Source: Archangiaceae bacterium (GTDB lineage Bacteria > Myxococcota > Myxococcia > Myxococcales > Myxococcaceae). From it: a DNA stretch of 18,933 nucleotides. This document shows, in pieces, positions 1,577 through 16,043 of the stretch; the stretch's first letter is position 1; each line of letters begins with the position of its first letter. The notes beneath the pieces are model-generated. The model worked only from the letters and a program-made list of their open reading frames with translations. It did not search any database and was not told where the DNA came from. The translations under genes were made by a program, and so were the position numbers. The DNA lies in the NCBI GenBank assembly GCA_043750125.1, contig JAYVCD010000452.1, positions 1 to 18,933 on the forward strand. The letters run 5' to 3'.

Positions 1577-1672
1577 TCAGGGACAAGCCCGCAGCGCGAC
1601 CATCACCCACCCGCCGAAGAAACAGCTGAGGAAGAAGAAGACGACGCCCGCGATGATCCAGCCCTTGCTCAC
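1577..1672 (-). CDS. Small single-pass membrane peptide, 31 aa (MSKGWIIAGVVFFFLSCFFGGWVMVALRACP)
   Basis: The GTG start overlaps the methyltransferase stop (GTGA, 1669-1672). Most codons end in G/C and there is one continuous hydrophobic stretch. It is below the ORF-track size cutoff. Confidence 0.6.
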   Translation of the reverse strand: MSKGWIIAGVVFFFLSCFFGGWVMVALRACP

Positions 1673-2547
1673 ACCGCGATGTGGCGCAGCTTCATCTGAA
1701 CGTCAGAAGACCAGTGGTTGGCAAACGCGCGCACGCAAGTCGACAGGTAGCGCTCGTAGTTGTTCCACACCGTCTGCCCATCGCTCATCTTCGTCGCGCC
1801 CCACTTCTCTTTGATCTTCTTCTCGTTGAGGCGCAGGCGGCGCAGCCATTCGGCAGTGGTCTTCCCGTAGTCCTCGCGGCGGGTCTTGAGCTCGATGATT
1901 TCCCAGCTCTGTCCGCAGGCGGTGACCAGCTCTTCGAGCCGGGGGTTGAGGCCGCCGGGGAAGATCACGTCGGCGGTGAACTTCAGATCTTCGAGATCCT
2001 TTCGGGTGCGCGGAACGCGGTTGCGCAAGATGGCCTGAAAGCCGAAGCAGGCGCCGGGCTTCACCCAGCTCGCGAGCTTGTTGAAGTACTCGCGGTAGAT
2101 AGGCACCGACAGACCTTCTTGCTGCTGCTTCGGCGAGACGAGGTGGTCGATCATCTCGATCGACACCAGCGCGTCGTACTTCTCGGCCGGCGCGTAATCC
2201 TTGTAGTCGACGCACCAGGTGGTGACGCCCGGCAGCTTCCGGGTGGTGAGCTCGTCATGCTGGGCGCGCGAGAGCGTGATCCCGTGCGAGCGCTTCACCT
2301 TCTTGTCCAGCGCGAGGTACTCGAGGTTCGCGCCCCAGCCGCAGCCGACATCGAGCACCAGCGAATCGGCGGTCACCTCGGCGAAGTCGGCGAGGATCCG
2401 GCTCTTGTTCACCTGCGCCTGCTCGAGCGTGGTGTTCTTTTCGTCGTAGACGGCCGACGTGTAGTGCATGCGCTCGTCGAGCCAGAGGCGAAAAAACTCG
2501 TTCGAGATGTCGTAGCCGACTTCGACTTCTTCACGGGTGGAGGTCAT
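1669..2547 (-). CDS. SAM-dependent lipid methyltransferase, CMAS/Cfa family
   Basis: YDISNEFFRLWLD, SAM motif VLDVGCGWG, GITLSRAQ, IFPGG and DYGKTTAEW are signature motifs of the cyclopropane synthase / mycolic acid methyltransferase family. Confidence 0.92.
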   Translation of the reverse strand: MTSTREEVEVGYDISNEFFRLWLDERMHYTSAVYDEKNTTLEQAQVNKSRILADFAEVTADSLVLDVGCGWGANLEYLALDKKVKRSHGITLSRAQHDELTTRKLPGVTTWCVDYKDYAPAEKYDALVSIEMIDHLVSPKQQQEGLSVPIYREYFNKLASWVKPGACFGFQAILRNRVPRTRKDLEDLKFTADVIFPGGLNPRLEELVTACGQSWEIIELKTRREDYGKTTAEWLRRLRLNEKKIKEKWGATKMSDGQTVWNNYERYLSTCVRAFANHWSSDVQMKLRHIAV

Positions 2548-2584: not shown

Positions 2585-5500
2585 TCAGGCGACGGCTTCC
2601 ATCTCGCGGGTCAGCCGCTTCAGCTCTGCCGAGACGATGTCGGCGGTTTTCTTCAGCTGCTCTTCGCTGTGCAGACTGCTGACGAAGAAACGAAGGCGCG
2701 CGAGGTGCTCTTCGACCGCAGGGTATAAAATCGGCTGCACGTTGATCCCCCGGTCTTTGAGCGCATCGGACAGCTGCAGGCAGAGCACCGAATTGCCGAC
2801 AATCGCCGGCACCACCGCCGAGTCTTTCGACAGCCCGGTATCGATGTCGCGTTCTTTGAGCAGCTTCAAGAACAGCTTGGCGTTGTTCTGCAGCCTCTTC
2901 ACCCGCTCGGGGTGGGCTTCGAGCTGACGAAGGGCCGCCAGCGCCGCCGCCGCATTCGGAGGGCTGATGCCTACCGAGTAGACGAAGCCGGGCGTGGTGT
3001 ACTTGAGGTACTCGACCAGCGCGGTGGTGCCGGCGATGTAGCCGCCGCAGCTGGCGAACGATTTGCTCAACGTCCCCATCCACAGGTCCACGTCGCTGCG
3101 GACAACGTCGTAGTACTCGCCGATGCCGTGGCCGGTCTTGCCGATGACTCCGGCCGAGTGGGCTTCGTCGACGAGCAGCAAGGCCTGGTGCTTCTTCTTC
3201 ACCGCGATGAACTTCGGCAAATCAGGAATGTCGCCGTCCATCGAGTAGGTGCCTTCGATGCAGACCAGCACCCGGCGGTAATGCGGTCGCAGCGAAGTGA
3301 GCGCGCGGTCGAGCGCCTCGAAGTCGTTGTGGGGGAAGGGCCGTCGCTTGGCACCGGACAAGCGGGCGCCTCCGATGATCGAGTCGTGCGCGAGGGCGTC
3401 GTGGAGAATCAAGTCTCCGGGCCCCACGATGTGGCCGATGACGGTGACGTTGGTCGCGTGACCCGAGACGAAGACCAGCGACGACTCGGTGCCGAAGAAG
3501 CGGGCCAGCTCTCTCTCGAGCTCGCCGGTCAGCGGCTTCTCACCCGAGGCCACACGGCTGGCCGAGACCGACGTTCCGTAGGTGTCGATCGCGGCTTTCG
3601 CGGCGGTCGAGACCACCGGGTCCCCCGAGTTGCCGACGTAGTTGTAGGACGAGAAGTTGATCATCGACTTCCCGTTCACCACCGTGGTGTCACCGCAGAT
3701 CGCCTCGTGAACGCTGAAGTACGGGTTCTTCAAGCCGAACGCGGCCGCCATCTCGATTCGCTCTTGAAGCTCGGTGTACTCGGGGAATTTGTCGAAGCGA
3801 TAAGTCGACTCGTCCGCCGCTCCCTCTCGACCCGGCGCCTCGGCCTCGGACGCTGCTGCTTCGGGGGCCTTCTTCGCGGCGGCCGCGGCGACGAACTGGG
3901 GATCGCGCTGCTTGAATTCGGCCTCGACCCCTTCCATCACCGCGAGCAGCTTCCCGCTCGAATCCGTCCACGAGAGGGTGCCGCGCATCAAATCGCCGGT
4001 CGCCGCCTCGAAGACCGCGGTGCACAGCACGGGCGCGGCGCCGAAGGGGTGCAGCTGGGTGAAGCGCTTGAAGCCCAGCGGAAAGCCGGCGCGCTGATGC
4101 TTGACCCACGCCCAATAGCCGGCGAGCTGGAAGCTCGAATCGAGCAACAGCGGGTCCACCGTCCACGCGCTGCGCAGCGGGTCTTTGACCCAGTCCGACG
4201 GACGGCAGCCCTTGACCCAGCCGCTGACGCCGGTCTCGGTGAGGCCTTCGATGCTGACGATTCCGCGCAGCCGCGGGCCGTGGAAGGTGAAGCCCGAGTA
4301 GAACTCTTCGAGCGACATCGGCAGCGAGTCGTACGCGGGAAGCTGCGGCACGGGCGGAAGCTCTTTCGCGTCGACCGCGGCGCGCACCAGACCCCGGTAG
4401 CTGTCGGTGCCGGCCTGCCGCAGCGTCACGCGCTGGCCTTCGGCGCTCTGGGCCACGTCGGCGGAAAGCCAGAGGGTGTCATTGACCAGCACCGGCTTGA
4501 GCAGCTTGAAATCTTCGATGCTGAAGCCTTCGGTTCCCCCTCGCGCGTCGAGCGCAGCGGCGGCGAGATGATCCACTGCGGCGGCCAGGGGCAGCACGCG
4601 CTGGCCGGCCATCTGGTGATCATCGAGATAGACGTGAGTCTTCGGTGAGACCGGGAACTTCGAGACGTGGTGGGCGGACGGCGCGGTGACTTCTCGGCCG
4701 ATCAACACTTCGCCGGTGCCGCGCTCGACCTCGGTGAGGAAGCTGGCCAACCCTTCTTCGTCGGTGAGAAAGGTGACGCCCTGCTCGATCATTTCGCGCT
4801 TTTTGAACCCGGGGATCCGCTGCGCCATCGCGCTGTCTTCCCAGGGCGGAAAGTCGATCGTCACGCACCGTACGGAAGGCCGCGTGCGTTGCGAGAGTGC
4901 GGCGAGCATCGCGTTGGCCGACGCGTAGTCGGTCTGACCGGCGTTGCCGAAGCGTCCAGCCCAGGATCCCACTCCGACGAACAGCTTCAGCGCCGAGGTG
5001 GCGTCGAGCAGCGCGATCGCTCCGCCCACTTTGGGCTCGAGCACGGCGTCGAGTCCGGCGGCGTCTTTCTTCGCCACCAGCGAATCGGCGATCACCCCGG
5101 CCGCATGCACGATGGCGTCGATTTTCCCGAAGGCCGCTTTGACCGCGGCGACGCCGTCGTTCACGCTCTTCGTCGAGCGCGCGTCGAGCACCTGATAGCT
5201 GCACTCGCGCGCCCCGTCGCTCTTCACCGACGCGCACGCTTTGAGCGTCTCGTCGCTTGCCGCCGAACGACCCGCGAGCACGATGGCGCAGTGGTATTTC
5301 GAGCCGAGCGCGCGGGCAAATTTCAGCCCCAGGCCCCTGGCTCCACCGGTGACGAGCACGACCGATTGGGCATCGAGCGCCGCCGCGACGGGGCCGGACG
5401 CCCGAGCTTCCTTCAGCTCGGACGTGACCCGGCCGCCGCTCGAGTAGCCGACCTCGACCCGGCGATCGGCCGACACCAGCTCATCGAACAACGCCTGCGC

Positions 5501-8500
5501 GATCGCTTCGGCGCCCAGCGCGAGCTCAACGTCGATCGCCTTGACCACCGCGTCCGGCCATTCCTGCGCCAGGGCCCGGGTGAAGGCCAGCGCTCCGACC
5601 TGGCCCAGCGCTTCGCGTCCTCCGCCGGCCGACGACAGCCGGCCGCCCAGTGCCGCGACGGTGAGGAACAGCCGGGCCTCGGGGCCGACCTTGTTCGCCA
5701 TCGCCAATACCCGCCGGGTCGCGACGCGGTAATCGTTGTCGCGCGGCGTGAGGTCGGCGAGGTGAATGACGCCTGCGAAGCTTCCTGCGGTGGTCGCATC
5801 GCCAAGCACCGCTTCGATTCCGCGTGCGGTCAATCGGGTGGCGAGCGCCTTGCCGACCCCGTGGGCATCGACGGTGATCAACACCGGACGATCAAATGAG
5901 AGAACCGACTCGCGCAGGGGACGCAGCGGAGCGGCCAGCGCGACCGGCACGTAGCGCGAAATGGGAGCCGTTGACTTGCTGTCCACCGTCAGCTCGGTCG
6001 GCTTGGCGAGCGCGCCGACGATGTGGTTGATGACCGCGGCGATGGTGGTGGTCTTGTTGAACAGCTCTCGCGGCAGACCGCCCAGCTTCGGCCAGGCCTT
6101 CGCCACATCGCCGTCGAGCTCGACCAGCATCAACGAGTCGAAGCCGAGCTCACCGGTGAGCGCCTGTTCCATCTTCAGTGCGGCTGCGGGGAACGCGCTG
6201 ATCCGCGCGACGGACGCGAGGATCTTCGCTTCGACCTGGGGGCGAACGTCTTCGACGACCGGCGGCCGCGGCTCTTTTGGCGCCACCATGTTCGAGAAGT
6301 TCGGCGGCTTGATCGCCACCGGCAGCTTCTGCGCGGCCGCGAGCGAGGCGGCGGCTCCGGGGTTTCCACTGGCGACGGCCTGCAGCGCCGCGGCCTGGGC
6401 CTTGAGGATTTCTCCTTGCTGGGTCAGCAAAGCCATCTGCTCGCGGAAGAGGCTGACGAGGGAATCCATGGGTGCTCCGGTCTTGGTGGCCGAAAAGGAA
6501 GAGGGGCGTGCGGAAGGGGCACTGGGTCGGGCGGGAGCCACGGTGCGTGGCGCTCGCTGAGCCGGGCGTTCGATGCCCCAATAGGTTTGAGTCTCGAGGG
6601 GAGAAGGCGGCAACATCACCAGTCGGGCGTCGCTGCCCTCGAGCAGCGCTGCAGCGTTGAGCGGAACTCCACGGACCCACAGCTGCGCCAGGGTGGTGAG
6701 CAGCTGCGCCCCCCCATCGCCTCCCTCGGCTGAACCCAAAGAGAAGAACGCGCTGTCTTTTCCGGCCGCGCCGCGGGCGAAGGACAGCAGCGTGTTTCCC
6801 GCGCCCACCTGGATGAACAGCTTGCAGCCCTGAGCGACAACGGTCTCGAGCGCCGAGACGAAGTCGACCGGAGCGGTCGCGTGATCCACCCAGATGTCTC
6901 GCGCCTCGTCGACCGAGGTGTACAGGCCCCCTGAGATGCACGAGGCGATCGCCGTTGCCGGGGGCGAGAGCACGAGCCGCGCGACGATGCGGCGCATTCC
7001 GTCGTCGACGCCTTCCATCAGCGGCGAATGAAAAGCGTGCGAGACCTCGAGCTGCGCGGTCTTGAGCCCGTTGGCCTCGAGCTTCTTTTTCGCCGCCGCG
7101 ATCGACGCGGTGTGGCCCGAGAGCACCAGCTGGGTCGGGTGGTTGTGATTGGCCAGCCAGACATTGTTCAGGCCCGCGAGTAGCGGTTCGACCAGCGTGC
7201 GCTCGGCCATCACTGCGAGCATCGCGCCCGGATCTTTGAGGCCGAGCTTGTTCATCAGCTGGCCCCGGCGCGCCACCAACCGCACTGCGTCCTCGGCGGG
7301 CAGCATTCCGGCGACGGAGGACGCGACGAATTCTCCGAGGCTGTGGCCCAGGACCACGGTCGGCTCGACCCCCAATTCCTTGAGCCACTGTCCCAGCGCG
7401 AGGCCGAGCGCGGCCATCGCCGGCTGACAGACTTCGGTGCGGGTCAGCAGCGCCTGCGCTTCGACTTCGTCGTACGGCTCGGCGGGGTACAGCGCGGCGA
7501 GCAGGGAAGCGCCGGCGTCATGTTGCACCGCTCCGTCCAGCGACTTGAGCCGCCGAGCGACCGCGGGGAAGCGCGAGACGACATCGCGCAGCAACCCCAC
7601 CCGCTGGGCGCCCTGGCCGGGAAAGAGGAACGCGACCTGCCGCGCCGAGGCGTCGAGCACGGTGCCGAATGTGCCAGAGTCTTCACCTTTGACGAAGGCC
7701 TCGAGCCGCTCGATGAGTTGGGCGCGACCCTGGGCCACGATCGCCAACCGGACATCGAAGCTCTGCCTCTGGGCGAGGGTGAGCGCCACGTCCGCACACG
7801 AGAGCTGAAGGGTCGCAATCTGCTCGGCCACTTCGGCGGCGTAGGTCCGCAGCAGATCCTCGTTGGCCGCAGAGAAACAGAACAGCTGGGGGTGCTCGAC
7901 TTCGGAAGAGCTGACGGGCGGCGCCTCTTCGAGCAGCACGTGGGCGTTGGTTCCTCCGAACCCGAAGCTCGATACTGCCGCGCGCCGCGGATGCTTTGGG
8001 CTCGCCTTCCAGTCGAGCTCGGACTGCGCGATCTGAAAGGGTGAGCTCTCGAGCTCGAGCGAGGGGTTGAGCTCTTCACAGGAAGGCTGGGGAGGAATCG
8101 TGCGGTGGTGGAGCACGAGCGCGGCCTTGATGAAGCCTGCGACGCCCGCGGCCGACATGGTGTGGCCGATGTTGGCCTTGATGCTCGAGAGGTAGCAGTA
8201 CGGCTCATCGAGCGGGGTTTTGGCGCGGGCCTGAAAGAAGGACTTCAGCGCGCCGACTTCGGTCGCATCGCCGACGGTGGTGGCAGTGCCGTGGGTCTCG
8301 ACGAAGCCGATCGTCTCGACCGGGAAATCGAGGTCGCGGTGCGCGCGGCCCATGGCGGCGATCTGCCCTTCGGCGCGCGGGGTCATCGGGCCATCGCCGC
8401 GCCCGTCGTTGTTGCAGCCGCTGCCCTTGATCACGGCCCAGATGCGATCGCCATCGCGGCGCGCGTCTTCGAGCTTCTTCAGCATCACCATCCCCACGCC

Positions 8501-9301
8501 TTCGCCCATCACGAACCCGTCGGCGCGGGCGTCGAAGGGACGGCAGACGCCGGACGGAGAGATGGCTCCGATGCGGGAGAAGCCGATGAGGTTGTCGGGC
8601 TGCAGGTTCAGGTAAACCCCGCCGGCGAAGGCGACGCTGCACTGTCCCGCGCGCAGGTTGATCACCGCTTCGTGAATCGCGACCAACGCCGAGCTGCAGG
8701 CCGCGTCCATCGACCAGCTGGGGCCGCCGAGATCGAAGGTCTGCGAGATGCTGGCCGCCCCCATGTTCAGCAGCGAGCCGGCGATCGAGAAGGCGCGCAT
8801 CGGGACCACGTCGGCCACCGAGGCCCTCAAGGCTTCGGCTTCAGAGGTGGACAACTTGTCGCCGAACTGTCCGTCGATGGTCTGCTGGGCGCGCACCCGC
8901 GAGATGAGCAGGTCCTTGTGCTCGGAGACCGACGCCCCGACGAAGACGCCGGCGTTGGCGCGGTCGAAGCTCTTCCCGTCGTAGCCCGCGTCCTGAATCG
9001 CCTGCCGCACCGCTTCGATCAACAGCCGATGTTGGGGGTCCATCACCTGTACCCGCCGCGGAGCGAGCCCGTAGTGAAGCGCGGCGAACTCTTTGTAGCC
9101 CTCGACGAAGGCGCCCTTGCGCACGTACGTCTTGTCGGCCGCCCGCAAGTCGGTCGCGTCGAAGAAGCTGGCGTGGTTCCAGCGCTCTTCCGGAATGTCC
9201 TCGAAGGTCACTTCCCCGGTGCGGACGACGCGCCAGAGCGCACTGAGGTCTTTGGCGTGGGGAAACTTGCACGCCATTCCGATGACGGCGATGTCGCTCA
9301 T
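2585..9301 (-). CDS. Type I PKS (KS-AT-ACP-KR-DH) fused to a C-terminal PLP-dependent alpha-oxoamine synthase (serine palmitoyltransferase/AONS family)
   Basis: KS: DAACSS, HGTAT, NIGHT. AT: GHSLG and HAFHS (malonyl type). ACP: LGFDSL. KR: VTGGARGLG, DYASAN. DH: HQMAGQRVLP and DSSFQ. AOS: NFSSYNYVG, DALAHDS, YSMDGD, DEAHS, GTLSKSFA (PLP lysine). Confidence 0.95.
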   Translation of the reverse strand: MSDIAVIGMACKFPHAKDLSALWRVVRTGEVTFEDIPEERWNHASFFDATDLRAADKTYVRKGAFVEGYKEFAALHYGLAPRRVQVMDPQHRLLIEAVRQAIQDAGYDGKSFDRANAGVFVGASVSEHKDLLISRVRAQQTIDGQFGDKLSTSEAEALRASVADVVPMRAFSIAGSLLNMGAASISQTFDLGGPSWSMDAACSSALVAIHEAVINLRAGQCSVAFAGGVYLNLQPDNLIGFSRIGAISPSGVCRPFDARADGFVMGEGVGMVMLKKLEDARRDGDRIWAVIKGSGCNNDGRGDGPMTPRAEGQIAAMGRAHRDLDFPVETIGFVETHGTATTVGDATEVGALKSFFQARAKTPLDEPYCYLSSIKANIGHTMSAAGVAGFIKAALVLHHRTIPPQPSCEELNPSLELESSPFQIAQSELDWKASPKHPRRAAVSSFGFGGTNAHVLLEEAPPVSSSEVEHPQLFCFSAANEDLLRTYAAEVAEQIATLQLSCADVALTLAQRQSFDVRLAIVAQGRAQLIERLEAFVKGEDSGTFGTVLDASARQVAFLFPGQGAQRVGLLRDVVSRFPAVARRLKSLDGAVQHDAGASLLAALYPAEPYDEVEAQALLTRTEVCQPAMAALGLALGQWLKELGVEPTVVLGHSLGEFVASSVAGMLPAEDAVRLVARRGQLMNKLGLKDPGAMLAVMAERTLVEPLLAGLNNVWLANHNHPTQLVLSGHTASIAAAKKKLEANGLKTAQLEVSHAFHSPLMEGVDDGMRRIVARLVLSPPATAIASCISGGLYTSVDEARDIWVDHATAPVDFVSALETVVAQGCKLFIQVGAGNTLLSFARGAAGKDSAFFSLGSAEGGDGGAQLLTTLAQLWVRGVPLNAAALLEGSDARLVMLPPSPLETQTYWGIERPAQRAPRTVAPARPSAPSARPSSFSATKTGAPMDSLVSLFREQMALLTQQGEILKAQAAALQAVASGNPGAAASLAAAQKLPVAIKPPNFSNMVAPKEPRPPVVEDVRPQVEAKILASVARISAFPAAALKMEQALTGELGFDSLMLVELDGDVAKAWPKLGGLPRELFNKTTTIAAVINHIVGALAKPTELTVDSKSTAPISRYVPVALAAPLRPLRESVLSFDRPVLITVDAHGVGKALATRLTARGIEAVLGDATTAGSFAGVIHLADLTPRDNDYRVATRRVLAMANKVGPEARLFLTVAALGGRLSSAGGGREALGQVGALAFTRALAQEWPDAVVKAIDVELALGAEAIAQALFDELVSADRRVEVGYSSGGRVTSELKEARASGPVAAALDAQSVVLVTGGARGLGLKFARALGSKYHCAIVLAGRSAASDETLKACASVKSDGARECSYQVLDARSTKSVNDGVAAVKAAFGKIDAIVHAAGVIADSLVAKKDAAGLDAVLEPKVGGAIALLDATSALKLFVGVGSWAGRFGNAGQTDYASANAMLAALSQRTRPSVRCVTIDFPPWEDSAMAQRIPGFKKREMIEQGVTFLTDEEGLASFLTEVERGTGEVLIGREVTAPSAHHVSKFPVSPKTHVYLDDHQMAGQRVLPLAAAVDHLAAAALDARGGTEGFSIEDFKLLKPVLVNDTLWLSADVAQSAEGQRVTLRQAGTDSYRGLVRAAVDAKELPPVPQLPAYDSLPMSLEEFYSGFTFHGPRLRGIVSIEGLTETGVSGWVKGCRPSDWVKDPLRSAWTVDPLLLDSSFQLAGYWAWVKHQRAGFPLGFKRFTQLHPFGAAPVLCTAVFEAATGDLMRGTLSWTDSSGKLLAVMEGVEAEFKQRDPQFVAAAAAKKAPEAAASEAEAPGREGAADESTYRFDKFPEYTELQERIEMAAAFGLKNPYFSVHEAICGDTTVVNGKSMINFSSYNYVGNSGDPVVSTAAKAAIDTYGTSVSASRVASGEKPLTGELERELARFFGTESSLVFVSGHATNVTVIGHIVGPGDLILHDALAHDSIIGGARLSGAKRRPFPHNDFEALDRALTSLRPHYRRVLVCIEGTYSMDGDIPDLPKFIAVKKKHQALLLVDEAHSAGVIGKTGHGIGEYYDVVRSDVDLWMGTLSKSFASCGGYIAGTTALVEYLKYTTPGFVYSVGISPPNAAAALAALRQLEAHPERVKRLQNNAKLFLKLLKERDIDTGLSKDSAVVPAIVGNSVLCLQLSDALKDRGINVQPILYPAVEEHLARLRFFVSSLHSEEQLKKTADIVSAELKRLTREMEAVA

Positions 9302-10143
9302 GCGTTGAGGATCACGGCGGAAGCCGGGGGCGTCACCGCTGCTTCCGCGACCTTGAGCTTGTCCTTCCAGACGCGGGGCAGGTCGTGGCGCGAGATCTTG
9401 AGCGCCTTGAAGATCGGGCCCCAGACCTCAGAGAGGAACACTCCGCGGTCGATGCCGGCGGTGCGCATCACCTCGACGCGTGACTCGTAGTCGGGGATCA
9501 GCTCGAACGCGGGCATGGTGAAACCGTAGAAGACCGTGGCGATGTCCTTGAGCGTCCCCTCGCGGTCGTCATCGAGAAAGTGTCCGAGGACGATTTCGTA
9601 ATACCGCGCGTGCGCCATTTCGTCTTTGGCGATCAGCTTGTAGATCGACGCCAGCGCGGGCTGGTTCTCGGCCTCGCACAGCGCCTGCTGCTTCTTGTAG
9701 ATGATGAAGGTCGTCATCTCTTGCACCGCGCCGTAGGCGGTCATCTGCCGGCCGGTGTCGAACGGTCGCTTCCATTCCTGCTTCAAGATCCGCTCTTCGT
9801 AATCGAACATCTGATCTTCGGTGCGGTGTCCGCTGCGCACGAGGAACTCGCGCAGCGACAGGGCGTGCTTGCTCTCTTCGTAGCCCCAGTTCACCGCGAA
9901 CCAGCTGCGCGCGAAGTTGTCGCGAAACAGATCGAGGTGCCCTTTGACGTAGTCGGGCAGGTACATCTCGACGCCGCAGAACGTCTCGGTGCACAGCGCC
10001 AGCTTGTCGTTGCGCGGAGCGTTTTTCGCCGCTTCCCAGTCGATGTCGGTGAACGGGTTCCAGCGGCGGGCCCGTTCGGCGTGCTCGAAGAACGTCATGT
10101 ACTCGCGGTGAAACTTTTCGCGCAGGGCTTTCGAGGCGGTCAT
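9298..10143 (-). CDS. Soluble acyl-ACP desaturase (ferritin-like di-iron family)
   Basis: Di-iron motifs WGYEESKH, VQEMTT and KDEMAH match the EExxH / QE / DExxH pattern; FTMP occurs near the C-terminus. The stop overlaps the PKS start (ATGA). Confidence 0.88.
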   Translation of the reverse strand: MTASKALREKFHREYMTFFEHAERARRWNPFTDIDWEAAKNAPRNDKLALCTETFCGVEMYLPDYVKGHLDLFRDNFARSWFAVNWGYEESKHALSLREFLVRSGHRTEDQMFDYEERILKQEWKRPFDTGRQMTAYGAVQEMTTFIIYKKQQALCEAENQPALASIYKLIAKDEMAHARYYEIVLGHFLDDDREGTLKDIATVFYGFTMPAFELIPDYESRVEVMRTAGIDRGVFLSEVWGPIFKALKISRHDLPRVWKDKLKVAEAAVTPPASAVILNA

Positions 10144-10160: not shown

Positions 10161-10424
10161 TCAGGCGGCGACTTCAGTTCCGGCGGGCACCAGGCGTTTG
10201 ACCAGCGAGGCCAGGTCTCCCAGCGTCTGGACCTTCGCGAGGTCCTCGTCGGGCATCCGGATGTTGAGCTTCTCTTCGAAATAGCTGACCAATTCCATCA
10301 CCGCGACCGAGTCGAGGCCGAGCTTGGAAATCACCGTGTCGCTGGTGAGCTCACCGAGCTTCTTCCCGTTCACTTCGAGGGCCGCCTGCTGAAACATCTG
10401 AAGAACGTTCACCGTCTGCGCCAT
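10161..10424 (-). CDS. Stand-alone acyl carrier protein
   Basis: 87 aa with the phosphopantetheine site LGLDSV and the ACP-like helix pattern ELVSYFEEKLNIRMPDEDL. Confidence 0.95.
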   Translation of the reverse strand: MAQTVNVLQMFQQAALEVNGKKLGELTSDTVISKLGLDSVAVMELVSYFEEKLNIRMPDEDLAKVQTLGDLASLVKRLVPAGTEVAA

Positions 10425-10453: not shown

Positions 10454-12337
10454 TTAGAAAAACCTGCCGACCAGCGAACGCGCGTAACGACCGGCGAGGC
10501 CGAGCTTGAGGACGGCGTCGGCGGTGGTGCGGATTTCCAGCGCGTGCCGAAGGACTTTTCTCGCCCGGTGCCGGCTGCGGCCGACCAGCGAGAGCGCGAC
10601 GTGCTTGGCGAGCACCGCTTTCTGGGACTTCCCGAGCGAGCGGCTGCCTTCCTTGCCCAGCGTCTTGTCGAGGTACTGCAGCCGGGTCTTGGCGCGCTGC
10701 AGCTTTCCGCTCGAGGTCTTCGGCAGGCTGCCGGGCGCCGCGATCACCACTTCATTCACCGCCAGCTGCAGCAGCTCGCTCATCCGCTGCTTCACCGTTT
10801 CTTTGAGCTTCTCGGGGTCCTGGGTGCGCGACTCGACCGCGACGATCAGCTCTTCGCTGTTGGCGCCGGGAATCGAGAAAGCCACGGTGCTGCCCTTGCG
10901 GACTTCAGGCACTTCGTCGGCAATCCACTCGATGCGCTGCGGTTCCCAATTGCGGCCGTTGATGATGATCAGGTCCTTCTTTCGACCGGTGATGTAGACG
11001 TTTCCGCTGACGAGGTAGCCCAGGTCTCCGGTGCGCAGCCAGCCGCCGCCGAACGTCTTCTCGGTCGCGGCGGGGTCACGGAAGTACCCCTTGGCGATCG
11101 ACGGGCCCTTGACCCACAGCTCGCCGACCCGGCGGTCTTTGAGCCGCTTCCCGTCGTCATCGAACACTGCGACTTCGTGACCCGGGAAGGTCTTGCCGAC
11201 GCTGACGAACTCGACCGCGGTTTGCGATTTGAGCGAATCGACGTGGGCCGGCTCGGCGCGGCGATCGGTCTGAAGGGGATCTTTTTCGACCACGTCGGTC
11301 GACAAATCTTCGGTCAGCGGAATGAAGGAAATCGCCAGCGTCGCTTCGGCCATTCCGTAGCAGGGCAGCAGCGACGACGGTTTGAGGCCGGCTTTCGAGA
11401 AAGTCTCGACGAACGCCTTCATCGTCGCGGGGTTGATCGGCTCGGCTCCGCAGCCGAAGGCTTTCATCGACGAGAGGTCCCAGCGGGCGAGGGCTTCGGG
11501 CTTGGCGCGCTTGGTCGCCAGCGCGTAGGCGAAGTTCGGAGCGAAGCTGATCGTCCCCCGCTTCTTGCTGATCGTATCGAGCCAGATGGTCGCGTTGCGC
11601 ACGAAGGCCATCGTCGGAATGAAGGTGCAGGCGATGCGGTGAAACAGCGGGGCGATGACGAAGCCGATCAGCCCCATGTCGTGGTACAGCGGGAGCCAAC
11701 TGACGCCGTGGTCTACGTCGGTGTCGGTGTTGAGCCCGTCGCGCATGATCGCCCACGCATTGGCGCGAAGCGAGCCGTGGGTGACTTCGACACCTTTGGG
11801 AGCCGAGGTGCTGCCGGACGTGAATTGCAAGAACGCCAGGTCTTCGGCAGTGACGGTCGCGGGCCGCTGATCCGCGTCGGCCGGAGGGTCGGTGCGCAGC
11901 GTCTCGGCGGTGATGACGCCCTGAAGGGATTTCACTTTCGCCGCGCCGCTCCACAGCACCGACTCGAGCTTGGCGTTGGTGGCCAGGTAGGTCGGCTCGG
12001 CCTTGGTCATGATCGAGACCAGCGCCTCGATGTAGGCGTCGAGCTTGCCCAGGGACAGCGGAGGGTAGAGAGGAACCGGTACGATTCCGGCCCACACCGC
12101 TCCGAAAAATGTCGGCACGAAGTCCTCGCCGTCGGGCATCACCATCGCCAGGCGGTCGCCTTTCTTCATTCCCTTGCTGCGCAGCCAGGCGCCCCGTCGC
12201 ATCGCCTCAGTCCGAAGCGCATCAAACGAGTAGTGAACGTCGGAGCCTTCCCGGCCCAAAAACGTGAAGCCCTTCTCAGTGAGACCCTGGTTGGCGTCCA
12301 GCGCTGCGATCAAGGTGGGGAAGTCGAAGATCTCCAT
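10454..12337 (-). CDS. Fatty acyl-AMP ligase (FAAL; acyl-ACP synthetase)
   Basis: LQFTSGSTSAPKGV, SWLPLYHDMGL, PCYGMAEATL followed by the FAAL-type insertion, WLRTGDLG and PKTSSGK. I place the start at Met50 of the track ORF (12337) because the upstream in-frame part is AT-rich and looks non-coding. Confidence 0.92.
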   Translation of the reverse strand: MEIFDFPTLIAALDANQGLTEKGFTFLGREGSDVHYSFDALRTEAMRRGAWLRSKGMKKGDRLAMVMPDGEDFVPTFFGAVWAGIVPVPLYPPLSLGKLDAYIEALVSIMTKAEPTYLATNAKLESVLWSGAAKVKSLQGVITAETLRTDPPADADQRPATVTAEDLAFLQFTSGSTSAPKGVEVTHGSLRANAWAIMRDGLNTDTDVDHGVSWLPLYHDMGLIGFVIAPLFHRIACTFIPTMAFVRNATIWLDTISKKRGTISFAPNFAYALATKRAKPEALARWDLSSMKAFGCGAEPINPATMKAFVETFSKAGLKPSSLLPCYGMAEATLAISFIPLTEDLSTDVVEKDPLQTDRRAEPAHVDSLKSQTAVEFVSVGKTFPGHEVAVFDDDGKRLKDRRVGELWVKGPSIAKGYFRDPAATEKTFGGGWLRTGDLGYLVSGNVYITGRKKDLIIINGRNWEPQRIEWIADEVPEVRKGSTVAFSIPGANSEELIVAVESRTQDPEKLKETVKQRMSELLQLAVNEVVIAAPGSLPKTSSGKLQRAKTRLQYLDKTLGKEGSRSLGKSQKAVLAKHVALSLVGRSRHRARKVLRHALEIRTTADAVLKLGLAGRYARSLVGRFF

Positions 12338-12429
12338 TTCGTGGGAATACGTTGGAAGGGGAAAAGGGGTCAACAGCGGACCTGCATCGCCCGAGGTCGC
12401 CGAAACGGGTGCGAAGCGAGGCACAGGAC

Positions 12430-12457
12430 AAAATAGTAAGTATTGGCAGTATGTTAA
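12430..12457 (-). promoter_or_regulatory. Candidate sigma70-type promoter for the FAAL-PKS operon
   Basis: TTAACA-N16-TATTTT on the minus strand, inside the AT-rich divergent intergenic region 12338-12679. Weak match. Confidence 0.3.
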
Positions 12458-12642
12458 AGTCGAATATCGCGCCTTATGACGCACGCAATACGCAGCACGG
12501 TGAGCCGATTGTTGCTCACAATAGCGAATCGGGTTCTGCCCCGTGCCTTGGGGCGTTTCCGGTTGGCCCGGTGCCCCTTTCGAACCCTGAATTCAACTTA
12601 CTGTATTTGTTCAACTTTAAAGTGCGCATAAAACTGCTCAGT

Positions 12643-12679: not shown

Positions 12680-13876
12680 ATGCAAACCGAGCCGACCGGA
12701 GCTTCCGTGATCTCTCCCCCTCCGTCTGACGTGGTGATCAGCCGGGTCGAGACCGCCGAACAGAAGAAGCAGTTCATCCTCTTCCAGTACGAGGTCTACA
12801 AGAACGACCCGCACTTCGTCCCGCCGCTGCTGATGGATCGCGAGATGTTCTTCAACGAGAAGAAGAACCCGTGGTTCGAGTTCGGAAAAACGGATCTGTT
12901 TCTCGCGCGCCGCAACGGGAAGATCGTCGGCCGGGTCGCAGCGATCGAAGACCCCCGCTACAACGATTTTCACCAGACGAAGATCGGCTGGTTCGGAATG
13001 TTCGAATGCATCGATGACGTGGCGGTGGCCCGGGCCCTGCTGCAGACCTGCGAAGTCTGGGTCCAGGCACGCGGGCTGACCCAGATGCTCGGGCCGGCCA
13101 ACTTCTCCAGCAACAGTGAGTGGAGCACGCTGATTGACGGCTTCGACGCCGACGCGGTGCTGATGACCACCTACAACCCGAAGTACTACCCGGCGCTGAT
13201 CGAAGCGTGCGGGTACACCAAGGCGAAGGACCTGTGGGCGTTCTGGCTCGACTTGAAGACCCCTCCGCCCGAGCGGGTGGCGCGCATCGCCGAGAAGGTC
13301 CGCGCCCGGGAAGGAATCGTCATTCGCAAAGCGAACATGAAGGACTGGGACAACGAGGTGCGGAAGATCAAAGAGATCTACAACGCGGCCTGGGAAAAGA
13401 ACTGGGGCTTCGTGCCGATGACCGATCGCGAATTCGATCACCTCGCGAAGGACCTGAAGATGATCCTCATTCCCGAATTGACGCTGCTCGCCGAAGTGAA
13501 AGGGGAGGCGGTGGCCTTCGCGATCACGCTCCCCGACGCGAACCAGGCGATCAAGCTCGCCAACGGGAAGCTGACCACCTTCGGCCTGCCGATTGGCCTG
13601 GCGAAGATGCTGCTGAAGCTCAAGAAGATCAAAACCGGGCGGCTGGCGATCCTGGGAATCAAGACCGGCTTTCGCAAACGCGGCCTCGACTCGGTGCTGA
13701 TGCTCGACACCTTCCTCGCGGCCCAGAAGCTCGGCTGGACCGGGGGCGAAATCTCCTGGACCCTCGAAGACAATTCTCTCGTCAACCGCGCGATCGAGAT
13801 CTTCGGCGCCAAGAAGTACAAAACGTACCGGGTGTACGGCAAGCCGCTGGTCGCGCAGGTCGCGCTCAAAAACTGA
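12680..13876 (+). CDS. GNAT-fold N-acyltransferase, YghO / bacterial ceramide synthase (bCerS)-like, copy 1
   Basis: VGRVAAI, GWFGMFECIDD, GPANFSSN, LIDGFD, YNPKYY, KAKDLWA, IYNAAWEKNWGFVP, FRKRGLD and EISWTLEDN follow the motif series of this family. Confidence 0.85.
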   Translation: MQTEPTGASVISPPPSDVVISRVETAEQKKQFILFQYEVYKNDPHFVPPLLMDREMFFNEKKNPWFEFGKTDLFLARRNGKIVGRVAAIEDPRYNDFHQTKIGWFGMFECIDDVAVARALLQTCEVWVQARGLTQMLGPANFSSNSEWSTLIDGFDADAVLMTTYNPKYYPALIEACGYTKAKDLWAFWLDLKTPPPERVARIAEKVRAREGIVIRKANMKDWDNEVRKIKEIYNAAWEKNWGFVPMTDREFDHLAKDLKMILIPELTLLAEVKGEAVAFAITLPDANQAIKLANGKLTTFGLPIGLAKMLLKLKKIKTGRLAILGIKTGFRKRGLDSVLMLDTFLAAQKLGWTGGEISWTLEDNSLVNRAIEIFGAKKYKTYRVYGKPLVAQVALKN

Positions 13877-15066
13877 TGGCCGTCGCAGCGAAGCGGGGGA
13901 CGGACGCGCCGCCGCGGTATGCGGTGCGGGCCCCGGACGTGACCATCGAAGAAGTGGTCAATGCGCATCAGCGCGACGAGTTTTCGCGCTTTCCCCTCGA
14001 GCTCTACGCGGGCGACACCCGGTTCGTCCCTCCGATCGTGGCCGAGCGGCGCGAGTTCATCGACCCGACGATCAACCCCTTCTTCCAGCACGCCCGGGGA
14101 GCCTTCTTTCTCGCGCGCCGCAACGGGAAGGTCGTCGGTCGAATCGCAGCGGTGAACGATTCCCGGTACAACAATTTCCACGACAGCGACGTGGGCTTCT
14201 TCGGAATGTTCGAGTCGCTCAATGATCCAGGAATCGCCGCGGCGCTGTTCGAGACCGCCGCCCGGTGGATTCGTCTCAGTGGGCCGCAGATGATGATCGG
14301 CCCGCTCAACCTTTCCTTCCATCACGACATCGGCTGCCTGGTCGACGGGTTCGACCGTTCGCCCTCGATGATGATGCCGTACAACCCGCGCTACTACGCG
14401 AAGCTGTTCGAGGTGAACGGCTTCACCAAGTGCAAGGACCTCTGGAGCTACGAGCTGCTCGCCAGTGAGCCGCTGCCCGAGAAGGTCGCCCGCTTCGCCG
14501 AGCGGGTGCGCACCGCGGGCGGAATCACCATTCGTCGCATCGACCTTCGAGACGAAACGAACGAACGGCGGCGAATCAAGAACATCTACGACTCGATGCT
14601 CAAGCCCGGGTGGGGGTTTGCTCCGATTTCCGACGTCGAGTTCGACGCGGCGGTCAGTCGCCTGCGGCCGTTGATCGCGCTGCGGCCCGAGCTGTGCCTG
14701 GTCGCGGAAGCCAATGGAGAAGCGGTCGGCTTCGGGATTACCGTCCCGGACACCAACCTCGCGCAGAAGACCACCGGCGGGTATTTGTCGCGCTTTGGAC
14801 TTCCCGTCGGGCTGGCCAAGATGCTCTGGGCGGCGCGGAAGATCGACCGGCTGCGGGTGCTGATGTTCGGAATCAAGCAGGGCTGGCGACGGCGGGGAAT
14901 CGACGCGCTGCTCGCCGTTGAGACGATGCAGCAGGCGCGGAAGCTGGGTTACGTCGCGGGCGAGTTGGGGTGGGCGGCGGAAGACGACAAGCTGATCAAC
15001 CGCACCATCCAGGCCACCGGCGCCCGGCGGATCAAGACGTACCGGATTTTCGAGCGCGCGATCTGA
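13876..15066 (+). CDS. GNAT-fold N-acyltransferase, YghO / bCerS-like, copy 2 (396 aa)
   Basis: Collinear with copy 1 (VGRIAAV, GFFGMFES, YNPRYY, KCKDLWSY, WGFAP, WRRRGID). The likely start is ATG 13876, overlapping the upstream stop (TGATG), rather than 13207. Confidence 0.85.
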   Translation: MAVAAKRGTDAPPRYAVRAPDVTIEEVVNAHQRDEFSRFPLELYAGDTRFVPPIVAERREFIDPTINPFFQHARGAFFLARRNGKVVGRIAAVNDSRYNNFHDSDVGFFGMFESLNDPGIAAALFETAARWIRLSGPQMMIGPLNLSFHHDIGCLVDGFDRSPSMMMPYNPRYYAKLFEVNGFTKCKDLWSYELLASEPLPEKVARFAERVRTAGGITIRRIDLRDETNERRRIKNIYDSMLKPGWGFAPISDVEFDAAVSRLRPLIALRPELCLVAEANGEAVGFGITVPDTNLAQKTTGGYLSRFGLPVGLAKMLWAARKIDRLRVLMFGIKQGWRRRGIDALLAVETMQQARKLGYVAGELGWAAEDDKLINRTIQATGARRIKTYRIFERAI

Positions 15067-15086: not shown

Positions 15087-16043
15087 GTGAATTCCCCTAC
15101 CGAGCGTCGCATCGCCCTCTTCATCGACTTCGAGAACCTCGTCACCAACACGGGGATCACCGCCTCGAATTTTGATCTGCAGCCCGCGCTCGATCGCCTG
15201 CTCGAAAAGGGAAAGGTCATCTTCCGTCGGGCGTACTGCGACTGGTCGCGCTTCAAGGACGCCAAGAGCCACCTGCACGAGTTCGGCGTCGAGCTGGTCG
15301 ATGTGCCGCCGTCGACGCGCGCCGGAAAGAACAGCGCCGACATGCGGCTGGTGATCGACGCGCTCGAGCTTTGTTACGCCCGCGAGCACATCAACACCTT
15401 CGTCATCGCCTCGGGGGACAGCGACTTCTGCCCCCTGGCCTACAAGCTGCGCGAGAACGACCGGTTCGTGATTGGGCTCGCGGTGAAGGAAGCCACCTCG
15501 CCCTTCTTCGTCAAAGCCTGCGACGAGTTCATCTACTTGCGAGGGCAGGGAAGGGGCGAAGAGCGCAGCAGCGCGCGACCGGCCTCGAGTCGAACCAGCA
15601 GCAGCAGCGGCAGTCGGCCGGATGCCCGGCACGGCCCCGCCTCGTCCTCGGGCGAATCGGCTTCGAAGAAGCCCCGCGCGGTGCCTGAGATCGCCCGCGA
15701 AGTGGTCTCGAGCCTGCTTTCGCGCGCCACTGGCCCCGTCAACCCGTCCTTGATCAAAGAGACCATCGTCCGCAAGCAGCCCGACTTCGACGAGCGGGAC
15801 CACGGCTTCTCGACCTTCTCGCGGATGCTCGAGGCGATGGAGAAAGAAGGGCTGCTCAAACGCCAGCAGCAAGGCCGCCAGTGGTACGTGGTCGCGGTGG
15901 GCGAAGGCCTTGCCGAGCCGAAGGCGGGCAGCGAGGGTGAGCATGATCGCCACCTGCCTGCAGAACCGCACGACGTTCACGAGCACCACGAGCCGGAAGA
16001 AGAGTCGATTCCGGATCCGGAAGACGACGACCTCGCGCTTTAA
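15087..16043 (+). CDS. NYN (LabA/DUF88, PIN-like) domain protein with C-terminal LOTUS/OST-HTH domain
   Basis: IALFIDFEN, RAYCDW, KNSADMRLVIDA, SGDSDF and ACDEFIY; a Ser-rich linker; then PDFDERDHGFSTFSRMLE. Confidence 0.92.
   Translation: MNSPTERRIALFIDFENLVTNTGITASNFDLQPALDRLLEKGKVIFRRAYCDWSRFKDAKSHLHEFGVELVDVPPSTRAGKNSADMRLVIDALELCYAREHINTFVIASGDSDFCPLAYKLRENDRFVIGLAVKEATSPFFVKACDEFIYLRGQGRGEERSSARPASSRTSSSSGSRPDARHGPASSSGESASKKPRAVPEIAREVVSSLLSRATGPVNPSLIKETIVRKQPDFDERDHGFSTFSRMLEAMEKEGLLKRQQQGRQWYVVAVGEGLAEPKAGSEGEHDRHLPAEPHDVHEHHEPEEESIPDPEDDDLAL

Follow-up and report, generated by a model that had tools for sequence, protein, structure and literature searches.

The CMAS family of SAM-dependent methyltransferases is a textbook case of one carbocation intermediate being steered to different products, and to our knowledge only a few of the rules that govern this steering are understood. 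The fungal sphingolipid C9-methyltransferase is a member that methylates the alkene of a long-chain base with retention of the double bond; the fungal enzymes are about 500 residues long and membrane-anchored. In the bicarbonate-dependent E. coli Cfa and CmaA1, the anion is held by a Glu, a His and a Tyr (E239, H266 and Y317 of Cfa, corresponding to E140, H167 and Y232 of CmaA1; PMC11387697 and PMC9821293, each in part). MmaA1 and Hma (MmaA4) of Mycobacterium tuberculosis are non-cyclopropanating relatives that serve mycolate synthesis. In the fischerazole pathway of Fischerella, the CMAS/CFAS-related FshF is clustered with a fatty acyl-AMP ligase (FAAL), an acyl carrier protein (ACP), a desaturase and a PKS, and it acts with a non-canonical outcome on FAAL-loaded, ACP-tethered cis-9-16:1, according to the available part of the report (PMC13548996, 2026). 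Finally, in PfSgaAB of Pseudomonas fluorescens MYb115, long-chain bases arise outside the canonical SPT route, through a type I PKS that supplies an alpha-oxoamine synthase (PMC12134224); in the text of that paper, methyltransferase, desaturase, FAAL and myxobacteria do not occur even as word stems.

The window analysed here, the whole 18,933-nucleotide stretch of DNA, comes from a myxobacterium and carries at 1669..2547 on the minus strand an intact open reading frame for a single-domain CMAS-family SAM-dependent methyltransferase of 292 residues (MT). The PF02353 (CMAS) model matched it with an E-value of 1.2e-48 (166 bits against a cut-off of 27) over 264 positions (5-268 of 273), and within its SAM-binding motif VLDVGCGWG (residues 64-72; 2332..2358, minus strand) G68, C69, G70, W71 and G72 were invariant in a 40-sequence alignment. 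An AlphaFold (AF2) model with a pLDDT of 93.8 showed a compact methyltransferase domain, for which the top-ranked Foldseek matches were the mycolic acid methyltransferases MmaA2, UmaA and CmaA1 (TM 0.81-0.85); the Foldseek alignments with characterised enzymes, both mycolic acid methyltransferases and CFA synthases, showed an identity of only 21-26%. MT shares with E. coli Cfa and CmaA1 the Pfam family, the SAM motif and the equivalents of Tyr317 and Ile268. However, its BLASTP alignment with Cfa (25% identity) spans Cfa residues 120-365 only: MT starts at about Cfa residue 110-120 and is missing the lipid-binding domain at the N-terminus, which has been tied to membrane phospholipid substrates (PMC11387697, in part).

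MT scored below the NCBIfam cut-offs for Cfa-type enzymes (NF008686, 112 bits against 400; NF040703, 111 against 650; NF053839, 108 against 600) and for the mycolic_MTase equivalog NF040660 (104 bits against 390), and none of the 60 labelled among its 109 full-length nearest representatives exceeded any Cfa or mycolic cut-off. At best, then, MT may resemble the mycolic_MTase family in its working mode; a member of that equivalog it is not. A predicted complex of MT with the ACP of its operon (alignments A1 and A2) gave a score of 0.04 (mark 0.32) and weighs neither way. Nine longer homologues were found, none of them fungal; two of them, P0275 (desaturase plus partial CMAS) and P0277 (a 36-residue CMAS piece plus partial PP-binding), were rejected as evidence for gene fusion, being single-member clusters with fragmentary domains and probable gene-calling chimeras.

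MT is the last gene of an operon in which the gaps, from FAAL to MT, are 29, 17, -4 and 37 nt. The first gene encodes the FAAL (10454..12484, minus strand; PF00501 E-value 9e-63; NF006624 534 bits against a cut-off of 600), and is followed on the same strand by a stand-alone ACP of 87 residues with an LGLDS motif (10161..10424) and a soluble di-iron acyl-ACP desaturase-like protein of 281 residues (9298..10143; PF03405 E-value 1.3e-14), whose only PDB relative was DesA2 (1za0, 2.9e-7). The desaturase stop overlaps by 4 nt the start of a 2238-residue type I PKS (2585..9301, minus strand) of the order KS-AT(HAFH)-ACP-KR-DH-AONS, whose stop codon precedes the MT start by 37 nt. Its active-site motifs DAACSS, GHSLGE, HAFH, GFDSL, YASAN, HQMAGQRVLP and LSKSF are present, and the KR and DH motifs look active. 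The C-terminal AONS domain, a PLP-dependent, BioF/SPT-like alpha-oxoamine synthase (residues 1879-2221; 2639..3667, minus strand; PF00155 E-value 6.5e-50), scored best against the bioF (326 bits) and SPT (217-287 bits) models of NCBIfam, all under cut-off.

We found no characterisation of this pathway in the literature searched, which included a FAAL review, and the operon is predicted to encode an uncharacterised myxobacterial route to a sphingosine-like amino-lipid. The FAAL would load a long fatty acid onto the ACP, the desaturase would in the source genus add a cis double bond, and the PKS would extend the chain by one malonyl unit and, by reduction and dehydration, yield a 2-enoyl thioester. 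The AONS domain would then release the chain by decarboxylative condensation with an amino acid as a 2-amino-3-oxo-alk-4-ene, which would be a ketosphingosine-like base if that amino acid is serine. With such a pathway, bacteria would have a PKS-based way of making 4-unsaturated long-chain bases. As in PfSgaAB, its type I PKS supplies an alpha-oxoamine synthase, although PfSgaAB pairs an iterative PKS with a separate synthase (PMC12134224) and the PKS described here, a single FAAL-primed module, carries the AONS as a fused domain. MT has a genetic setting similar to that of MmaA1 and Hma, in which a FAAL stands with a DesA-type desaturase and a dedicated ACP, but it comes from a myxobacterium and its chain is passed to PKS-AONS instead of mycolate. 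The Fsh pathway differs in its membrane-type desaturase and in ending in an NRPS/PKS lipopeptide instead of AONS release, and FshF is likened to MT by its description (PMC13548996, in part).

The pocket motifs of MT are YTSAVY (29-34), SIEMIDH (129-135), FGFQAI (168-173) and DYGKT (226-230). In a MAFFT alignment of 221 sequences that included E. coli K-12 Cfa from NC_000913.3, S31, E131, D134, H135, Q171, I173 and Y227 of MT corresponded to C139, G236, E239, H240, H266, I268 and Y317 of Cfa. The preliminary description, aligned by eye, had already proposed the Cys to Ser, Glu to Asp and His to Gln exchanges and the kept Tyr, and all were borne out: of the bicarbonate ligands the Glu is replaced by Asp134 and the His by Gln171, and the Tyr is conserved as Tyr227. 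Pairwise BLASTP likewise gave the Cys to Ser and Glu to Asp changes and the kept Tyr, supporting Ser31 (2455..2457, minus strand) and Tyr227 (1867..1869, minus strand). The pairing of Gln171 (2035..2037, minus strand) with His266 hinges on the placement of a five-residue insertion; BLASTP puts Q171 in the gap, HMMER against 7qos and the MAFFT alignment pair it with the His, and in the AlphaFold model it lies within strand 162-175. The stretch Glu131-Met-Ile-Asp134-His135 (2143..2157, minus strand), equivalent to Gly236-x-x-Glu239-His240 of Cfa, holds the clade-specific catalytic change.

E131, D134, H135, Q171, I173 and Y227 were invariant in 120/120 close database homologues and again in all 89 locus-derived clade sequences, so the pocket changes are not a matter of chance. 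Position 31 was variable among the same 120 homologues (S in 102, C in 16 and A in 2). In the sequences compared, the pair of Glu131 and Asp134 is specific to the MT clade. Sister enzymes of the pathway carry the pocket C-C-E-H-Q and one paralogue carries G-G-E-H-Q, and these offer natural comparators for a clade that provides a natural, invariant Gly to Glu, Glu to Asp and His to Gln pocket in an easily expressed, soluble enzyme. The exchange of Gly236 for Glu131 had been missed in the preliminary description and proved more informative than the changes listed there.

Among characterised enzymes, the cyclopropanating PcaA, CmaA1, CmaA2 and MmaA2 read S-[IL]-G-A-F-E-H on the catalytic helix, with Gly and Glu at the two positions in question; these residues were obtained through a PDB search with a relative of MT (P0133), since a search with MT residues 95-200 alone gave no matches and one with the C-terminal half alone aligned the last ~100 residues only. 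UmaA and E. coli Cfa also have Gly where MT has Glu131. MmaA1 reads S-F-E-A-F-D, the same Glu/Asp pair as E131/D134 of MT, and Hma, with a Glu/Glu pair that resembles it, binds water with Glu146, Glu149 and Ser178 (PMC8708032, in part). Both share with MT the single-domain fold (TM 0.78-0.80) and the Glu at the Gly236 position, although identity in Foldseek is 23-25% and MT has Gln where MmaA1 keeps His. According to a citing sentence in the accessible portion of PMC13548996, CFAS active-site mutants give rearranged products. In MT the changed glycine position lies three residues before Asp134. The mutant meant in that sentence is reportedly E. coli CFAS G236E, which is said to make methyl-branched unsaturated acids.

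The best reading of MT, to which we assign a probability of roughly one half, is an active enzyme that carries out the SAM-dependent alkylation of a C=C in the chain and leaves a methyl branch. Here we infer substrate, stage of action and product. MT would move the SAM methyl to an isolated double bond of the chain, either while it is on the ACP, the mode of FshF and of the mycolic acid enzymes, or after release of the lipid. The carbocation would most likely be resolved by proton loss or hydride shift, giving a methyl-branched (or methylene) chain with no ring closure. This non-ring outcome seems likely since the Glu/His/Tyr bicarbonate pocket has been rebuilt by the changes of Gly to Glu131, Glu to Asp134 and His to Gln171; the rebuilt pocket points to a methyl branch instead of a cyclopropane ring, and the product itself is beyond the reach of sequence alone. 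Methylation of the PKS 2-enoyl intermediate was considered and rejected, because a thioester-conjugated alkene should react only poorly as a nucleophile with SAM. A branched sphingoid-like lipid, should that be the product, would serve as a new biomarker for the abundant, uncultured myxobacteria of soil and freshwater, and might be one of their signalling lipids.

The link of MT to the pathway is supported by the short gaps of the operon and by its distribution. The AONS domain lies directly upstream of MT in 47/48 group-A loci, and the ACP was seen in 42 of these 48, with the FAAL too in 40 of them; the other six are truncated contigs. In a sample of 401 Myxococcota genomes PKS-AONS was common, being carried by 105, and it was present in 77 of the 78 that carried MT (scored at >=50% identity), the exception being genome G255. 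Nine sister-clade loci read FAAL-MT-ACP, and eight of them continue via an optional desaturase into the PKS. The target double bond is harder to place in most carriers: of the 42 related clusters whose sequence spans the interval, just 6 have the cluster desaturase and 36 do not, and two operon-bearing genomes, each a single contig and 97-99% complete, gave no match to it at E <= 1e-10. The same counts leave unsupported the suggestion, made when the sequence was first described, that desaturase, PKS alkene and methyltransferase could together give a base resembling fungal 9-methyl-4,8-sphingadienine.

We consider it unlikely that MT is still a cyclopropane synthase, in which Asp134, Gln171, Tyr227 and backbone amides would hold bicarbonate or another base and the amino-lipid would carry a cyclopropyl chain. 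Asp could still hold bicarbonate, so that ring closure is conceivable; Tyr227 and Ile173 are kept, and the cyclopropane synthases MmaA2 and CmaA1 are among the closest folds. At two of the sites, active plant enzymes have the same Ser and Gln: the available text of PMC3132707 gives cotton GhCPS1 a Gln at the H266 position and a Ser at C139 and GhCPS2 the Ser together with I729 listed at H266, reports cyclopropane fatty acids from both, and credits E. coli C139S with 31% of the efficiency. Gln171 does not, then, rule out ring formation, because active plant cyclopropane synthases have Gln there as well. FshF in vitro gave a cyclopropane besides its vinyl product (PMC13548996, in part). Nor is the bicarbonate site by itself a report of the product, because the 10-methylene-forming BfaB and TmpB keep it (PMC7791843, in part). 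Against ring formation, neither Glu at the Gly236 position nor Asp at Glu239 occurs in any of the four cyclopropanating mycolic enzymes or in E. coli Cfa, the Glu239 position is reported as a conserved Glu in the cotton enzymes (PMC3132707, in part), and MmaA1 and Hma, the two mycolic enzymes that carry Glu in place of this Gly, make no rings. An extra carboxylate beside the anion site should also disfavour bicarbonate. The preliminary description had likewise favoured a C-methyltransferase over a cyclopropanase, and this remains the best reading, but on other grounds: it had taken Gln at the His position as a mark of non-cyclopropanating relatives, and this Gln is present in 88/99 of the nearest 50%-cluster representatives and in GhCPS1, while MmaA1 and UmaA keep the His. 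Its real support lies instead in Glu131 and Asp134.

We regard as less probable still that MT is an N-methyltransferase whose acceptor is a primary amine, that of the AONS product or of some other amino-lipid, with Glu131 positioning the nitrogen and His135 as the base. The plant N-methyltransferases CNMT, TNMT and PavNMT share the CMAS fold (TMq 0.75-0.82) and the spacing of the catalytic helix. In CNMT an E-x-x-E-H helix, Glu204/Glu207/His208, serves N-methylation (PMC6730481, in part) and has the spacing of Glu131-x-x-Asp134-His135, an equivalence drawn from the Glu-His pair; the alkene-acting Hma has this helix as well. CNMT is a clear relative of MT (E-value 1.3e-10; TMq 0.82). The pathway product carries an amine, in this clade the MT gene stands directly after the amine-forming domain, and the pocket change coincides with MT leaving the FAAL-MT-ACP position and with most clusters having lost the desaturase. 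However, the plant enzymes are 15-19% identical to MT, act on alkaloid amines and have a three-helix N-terminal extension (PMC6730481, in part) that MT lacks, MT 12-250 aligning to 75-307 of the 6gkv chain. MT is nearer to the lipid-alkene enzymes (UmaA, E-value 2.5e-21); the pocket residues of the alkene enzymes, Tyr227, Gln171 and Ile173, are invariant. Moreover, in the sister clade the gene lies between FAAL and ACP, and no amine-forming enzyme is close to the MT-ACP-desaturase triad that an MT paralogue forms in one genome.

The weakest alternative, that MT acts on general lipids of the cell (phospholipids, ether lipids or the acyl chains of classical ceramides) and owes its place in the operon to co-regulation only, draws on ten MT-bearing genomes without PKS-AONS, on stand-alone copies without conserved neighbours, on families f14 and f15, in which MT is unlinked from the PKS cluster, and on MT being the sole CMAS gene above the Pfam cut-off in the 89% complete source genome, but it is improbable given the missing lipid-binding domain, the near-complete co-occurrence and tight linkage with PKS-AONS, the FAAL-MT-ACP order of the sister loci and the near absence of MT from g5 (1/21) and g10 (1/32), two genera that are well sampled and have complete genomes of 9-10 Mb (these matches only 30-33% identical).

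Returning to methyl-branching of a chain alkene, the stand-alone copies of MT are 68-74% identical to it and have the same pocket, and 9 of the 10 tested genomes with such a copy have no PKS-AONS orthologue. Because of these nine genomes and G255, the MT clade must have at least one substrate from outside this PKS. One possible, though doubtful, account is that in the Glu131/Asp134 lineage MT switched from FAAL-loaded acyl-ACP, the substrate of an ancestral FAAL-MT-ACP arrangement with the pocket C-C-E-H-Q, to the finished long-chain base. The product would then be a methyl-branched, 4-unsaturated sphingosine-like base, its 4-ene made by the PKS dehydratase and its branch or N-methyl group by the soluble CMAS enzyme. 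This route would be convergent with, and mechanistically unlike, the eukaryotic one of desaturase and C9-methyltransferase. Such a switch would explain the survival of MT in genomes that lack the PKS and retain stand-alone SPT-like enzymes. Among the stand-alone AOS genes of five PKS-less genomes, NCBIfam labelled three as clear and one as borderline Kbl, and six fell below all cut-offs; four of these six scored best against the bioF and SPT models.

The methyltransferase gene (MT, 1669-2547, minus strand) lies in a tightly packed minus-strand operon, delineated from the open reading frames of the window and profile searches. It encodes a fatty acyl-AMP ligase (FAAL, 10454-12484), an ACP of 87 aa (10161-10424), a soluble di-iron protein resembling acyl-ACP desaturases (9298-10143), a type I PKS of 2238 aa with the order KS-AT-ACP-KR-DH-AONS (2585-9301), where AONS is an alpha-oxoamine synthase domain, and the 292-aa MT (PF02353, E 1.2e-48), all on the minus strand, with intergenic gaps from FAAL to MT of 29, 17, -4 and 37 nt. 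MT belongs to the PF02353 family outside the Cfa and mycolic equivalogs, its score falling far under every curated Cfa or mycolic cut-off in NCBIfam. A 31-codon hydrophobic ORF (1577-1672, minus strand) has a GTG start overlapping the MT stop codon (GTGTGA); similar peptides were seen in the two closest relatives only, directly after MT at locus L001 and 1.7 kb downstream at L002.

The PKS motifs look intact (DAACSS, GHSLGE, HAFH, GFDSL, YASAN, HQMAGQRVLP, DSSFQ and LSKSF), HAFH being a malonyl-type AT motif and LSKSF carrying the PLP-lysine. The order KS-AT-ACP-KR-DH is PUFA-synthase-like (omega_3_PfaA model, 602 bits), with the AONS domain fused at the end, and profile searches detected neither an ER nor a TE domain in this PKS (2585-9301, minus strand). 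The expected product of such a protein (PKS-AONS) is a long-chain base that is 4-unsaturated and bears a 3-keto group, with no need of a lipid desaturase. The AONS domain scores under the cut-offs of the bioF, Kbl and SPT models alike; a PKS module ending in an oxoamine synthase is known from prodiginine RedL.

The preliminary description had read, from four motifs aligned by eye, that MT departs from E. coli Cfa by Cys to Ser, Glu to Asp and His to Gln while keeping the Tyr. All four motifs were found in the MT translation, and BLASTP against Cfa of E. coli K-12 (cfa, NC_000913.3; 25% identity, E 8e-22) bore out the first two changes and the kept Tyr by pairing S31 with C139, D134 with E239 and Y227 with Y317. 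Q171 was left within a 5-residue gap; because it pairs with H266 (and I173 with I268) in a 221-sequence MAFFT alignment and in a HMMER alignment to Aquifex CFAS (7qos), and lies inside strand 162-175 of the AlphaFold model (pLDDT 93.8), we accept the His to Gln change as well. Bicarbonate is reported to be bound by the side chains of E239, H266 and Y317 and the backbone of C139 and I268 (PMC11387697, PMC3132707), and the CmaA1 counterparts of the ligands are given as E140, H167 and Y232 (PMC9821293). The Glu and His ligands are thus changed in MT (D134, Q171) and the Tyr ligand is retained (Y227). A fourth change in the MAFFT alignment, overlooked earlier, replaces Cfa G236 by Glu131.

E131, D134, H135, Q171, I173 and Y227 were invariant in 120 of 120 close database homologues (71-95% identical), in which residue 31 was S in 102, C in 16 and A in 2, and all 89 sequences read from fetched loci had the pocket [S/C]-E-D-H-Q-I-Y. 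The SAM motif is also intact. The pocket is a conserved, selected active site rather than the outcome of decay.

The earlier argument that MT may not be a cyclopropanase drew on Ser31 and Gln171 among other changes, and as diagnostics these two fail. Among the nearest relatives (99 full-length sequences, each representing a 50%-identity cluster and 27-55% identical), 88 carry Gln at the His position, which makes Gln the default in a large group of short CMAS-like enzymes that is uncharacterised; 89 retain the Glu and 69 the Gly. The cotton enzymes GhCPS1 (Ser in place of C139, Gln in place of H266) and GhCPS2 (Ser in place of C139, with I729 given for the H266 position) are both described as producing cyclopropane fatty acids, and E. 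coli C139S as keeping 31% of its catalytic efficiency (PMC3132707). The His is retained in MmaA1 and UmaA in PDB alignments, and the 10-methylene-forming BfaB/TmpB enzymes were reportedly picked for their conserved bicarbonate site (PMC7791843). For all these reasons Ser31 and Gln171 say little about the product.

The diagnostic feature of the MT pocket, as judged by alignment, is instead the pair Glu131 and Asp134, which among the near relatives aligned is confined to the clade of MT (the E/D clade). In PDB alignments the catalytic helix reads S-[I/L]-G-A-F-E-H in PcaA, CmaA1, CmaA2 and MmaA2, S-I-G-A-F-E-A in UmaA and S-F-E-A-F-D-A in MmaA1, whose Glu...Asp equals that of SIEMIDH in MT. An E. 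coli CFAS G236E mutant reportedly gives methyl-branched unsaturated acids, and is presumably the active-site mutant with rearranged products. Rearranged products have been described from CFAS active-site mutants (PMC13548996). In Hma/MmaA4, Glu146, Glu149 and Ser178 are reported to hold a water molecule (PMC8708032); MmaA1 and Hma have been tied to methyl branches beside a trans-cyclopropane or an oxygen function, the precise role of MmaA1 still awaiting a knockout according to the same source (PMC3245277). The MT pocket thereby resembles those of non-cyclopropanating mycolic enzymes, and its E-x-x-D-H motif argues against bicarbonate chemistry. It would fit C- or N-methylation alike, because plant CMAS-fold N-methyltransferases use the same helix, with Glu204-x-x-Glu207-His208 described as catalytic and Glu204 as contacting the substrate nitrogen (PMC6730481).

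MT is genetically coupled to the FAAL/ACP/PKS-AONS pathway. A scan of species-representative genomes gave 190 relatives, from which 80 loci were kept, all from myxobacterial MAGs. In group A (48 loci, 74-96% identical to MT) MT directly follows the AONS end of the PKS in 47, the 48th being on a truncated contig; of the 42 loci covering the ACP-KS interval, 6 have the desaturase, and no conserved gene follows MT. Two single-contig operon-bearing genomes (99% and 97% complete) gave no match to the desaturase at E <= 1e-10. The 32 loci of group B, which are 68-74% identical and share the pocket, had no PKS part and no conserved neighbour in the fetched DNA. Whole-genome searches of 10 group-B genomes located PKS-AONS in one; the other nine lacked it and gave no AONS match at E <= 1e-60. 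In five of these, fully listed, AONS matches had at best 37-40% identity; for KS at E <= 1e-60, three of the five gave best matches of 37-45% and two gave none. Across 401 evenly drawn Myxococcota genomes, related ones being non-independent, MT (at least 50% identity) occurred in 78 and PKS-AONS in 105, its open reading frames being mostly 2000-2500 aa long: both in 77, MT alone in one (G255), PKS alone in 28 and neither in 295. No MT was found alongside the PKS-AONS (72-74% identical) of three small genomes of genus g4 (G060, G204 and G286; 2.1-2.7 Mb, 88-99% complete), whose family f1 also holds 9-13 Mb myxobacteria.

Gene order differs in a sister clade (48-54% identical by tblastn; C-C-E-H-Q at the positions of Cfa C139, G236, E239, H240 and H266) that emerged from 23 further fetched regions: eight loci have FAAL-MT-ACP-(desaturase)-PKS, three of them with the desaturase, one has FAAL-MT-ACP and two have MT-ACP. 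Families f14 and f15 have a FAAL-ACP-desaturase-PKS cluster without MT, which lies elsewhere (~630 kb off in G088). In a FastTree tree rooted on the catalytic domain of E. coli Cfa (group A subsampled to 10 of 47 rows, group B to 10 of 32), the FAAL-MT-ACP clade joins the E/D clade with support 0.77; the E/D clade itself has 1.0 and group A 0.998. A 45%-identical paralogue with pocket G-G-E-H-Q forms a stand-alone MT-ACP-desaturase triad (L099:8765-10748, contig G001:C30), flanked by a sigma-54 activator on one side and valyl-tRNA synthetase on the other, in a genome that lacks PKS-AONS. Database protein P0195 is a type I PKS of 2988 aa whose residues 2213-2473 make up a CMAS-like domain, 36% identical to MT, so that it has such a fold embedded in an assembly line.

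We propose that FAAL would load a fatty acid, with a cis double bond either pre-existing or made by the desaturase, onto the ACP, that the PKS would add two carbons and leave a 2-enoyl thioester, and that the AONS domain would release a 2-amino-3-oxo-alk-4-ene. MT would alkylate an isolated double bond in the chain, collapse of the cation giving a methyl-branched or methylene product. Two things suggest that MT acts while the chain is on the ACP: the FAAL-MT-ACP order of the sister clade, and CMAS-like FshF, reported to convert FAAL-loaded, ACP-tethered cis-9-16:1 in vitro into vinyl and cyclopropane products (PMC13548996). The lipid-binding N-terminal domain associated with membrane phospholipid substrates (PMC11387697) is absent from MT. 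MT might instead act late or as an N-methyltransferase, because PKS-less carriers speak against strict dedication to the PKS product and because the pocket change coincides with the gene leaving its FAAL-ACP position and the desaturase turning rare.

The earlier residue observation is therefore confirmed and extended, and its non-cyclopropanase reading partly supported, on the different ground of the MmaA1-like Glu131/Asp134 pair. The 9-methyl-4,8-diene base proposed with it is unsupported, the desaturase being missing from most carriers. It would need serine as the amino acid, desaturation at C4 of the starter, because the PKS and the amino acid each contribute two carbons and so move the numbering by four, and methylation of that double bond; the only element supplied by the cluster everywhere is, we infer, the 4-ene from the PKS dehydratase.

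MmaA1/Hma come closest to MT in the pocket, FshF in genetic logic and PfSgaAB in pathway, its separate iterative PKS and AOS making sphinganines (PMC12134224). Word stems for methyltransferase, desaturase, FAAL and myxobacteria are all absent from that text, and the 6,101 homologous clusters of its supplement could include myxobacterial entries. A 2025 FAAL review, in which 'oxoamine' and 'sphing' are absent, has chondrochloren, ambruticins and alkylpyrones as Myxococcota entries. A description of the cluster was not found in the literature searched, and the operon represents an uncharacterised, widespread pathway.

Divergent from the FAAL gene are tandem paralogous genes of ~395 aa each (12680-13876 and 13879-15066, plus strand), with weak GNAT acetyltransferase matches at residues ~61-137 of the first copy, likewise in its G233 orthologue, and ~264-358 of the second. 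Of the group-A loci, 23 have a homologue in the same position, as does G233 (61% identical), and the pair (12680-15066) is a possible N-acyltransferase for the amino-lipid. An NYN-domain and OST-HTH/LOTUS protein (15087-16043, plus strand) and one bearing two LEA_2 repeats (17821-18651, minus strand), both assigned by Pfam, appear unrelated to the operon.
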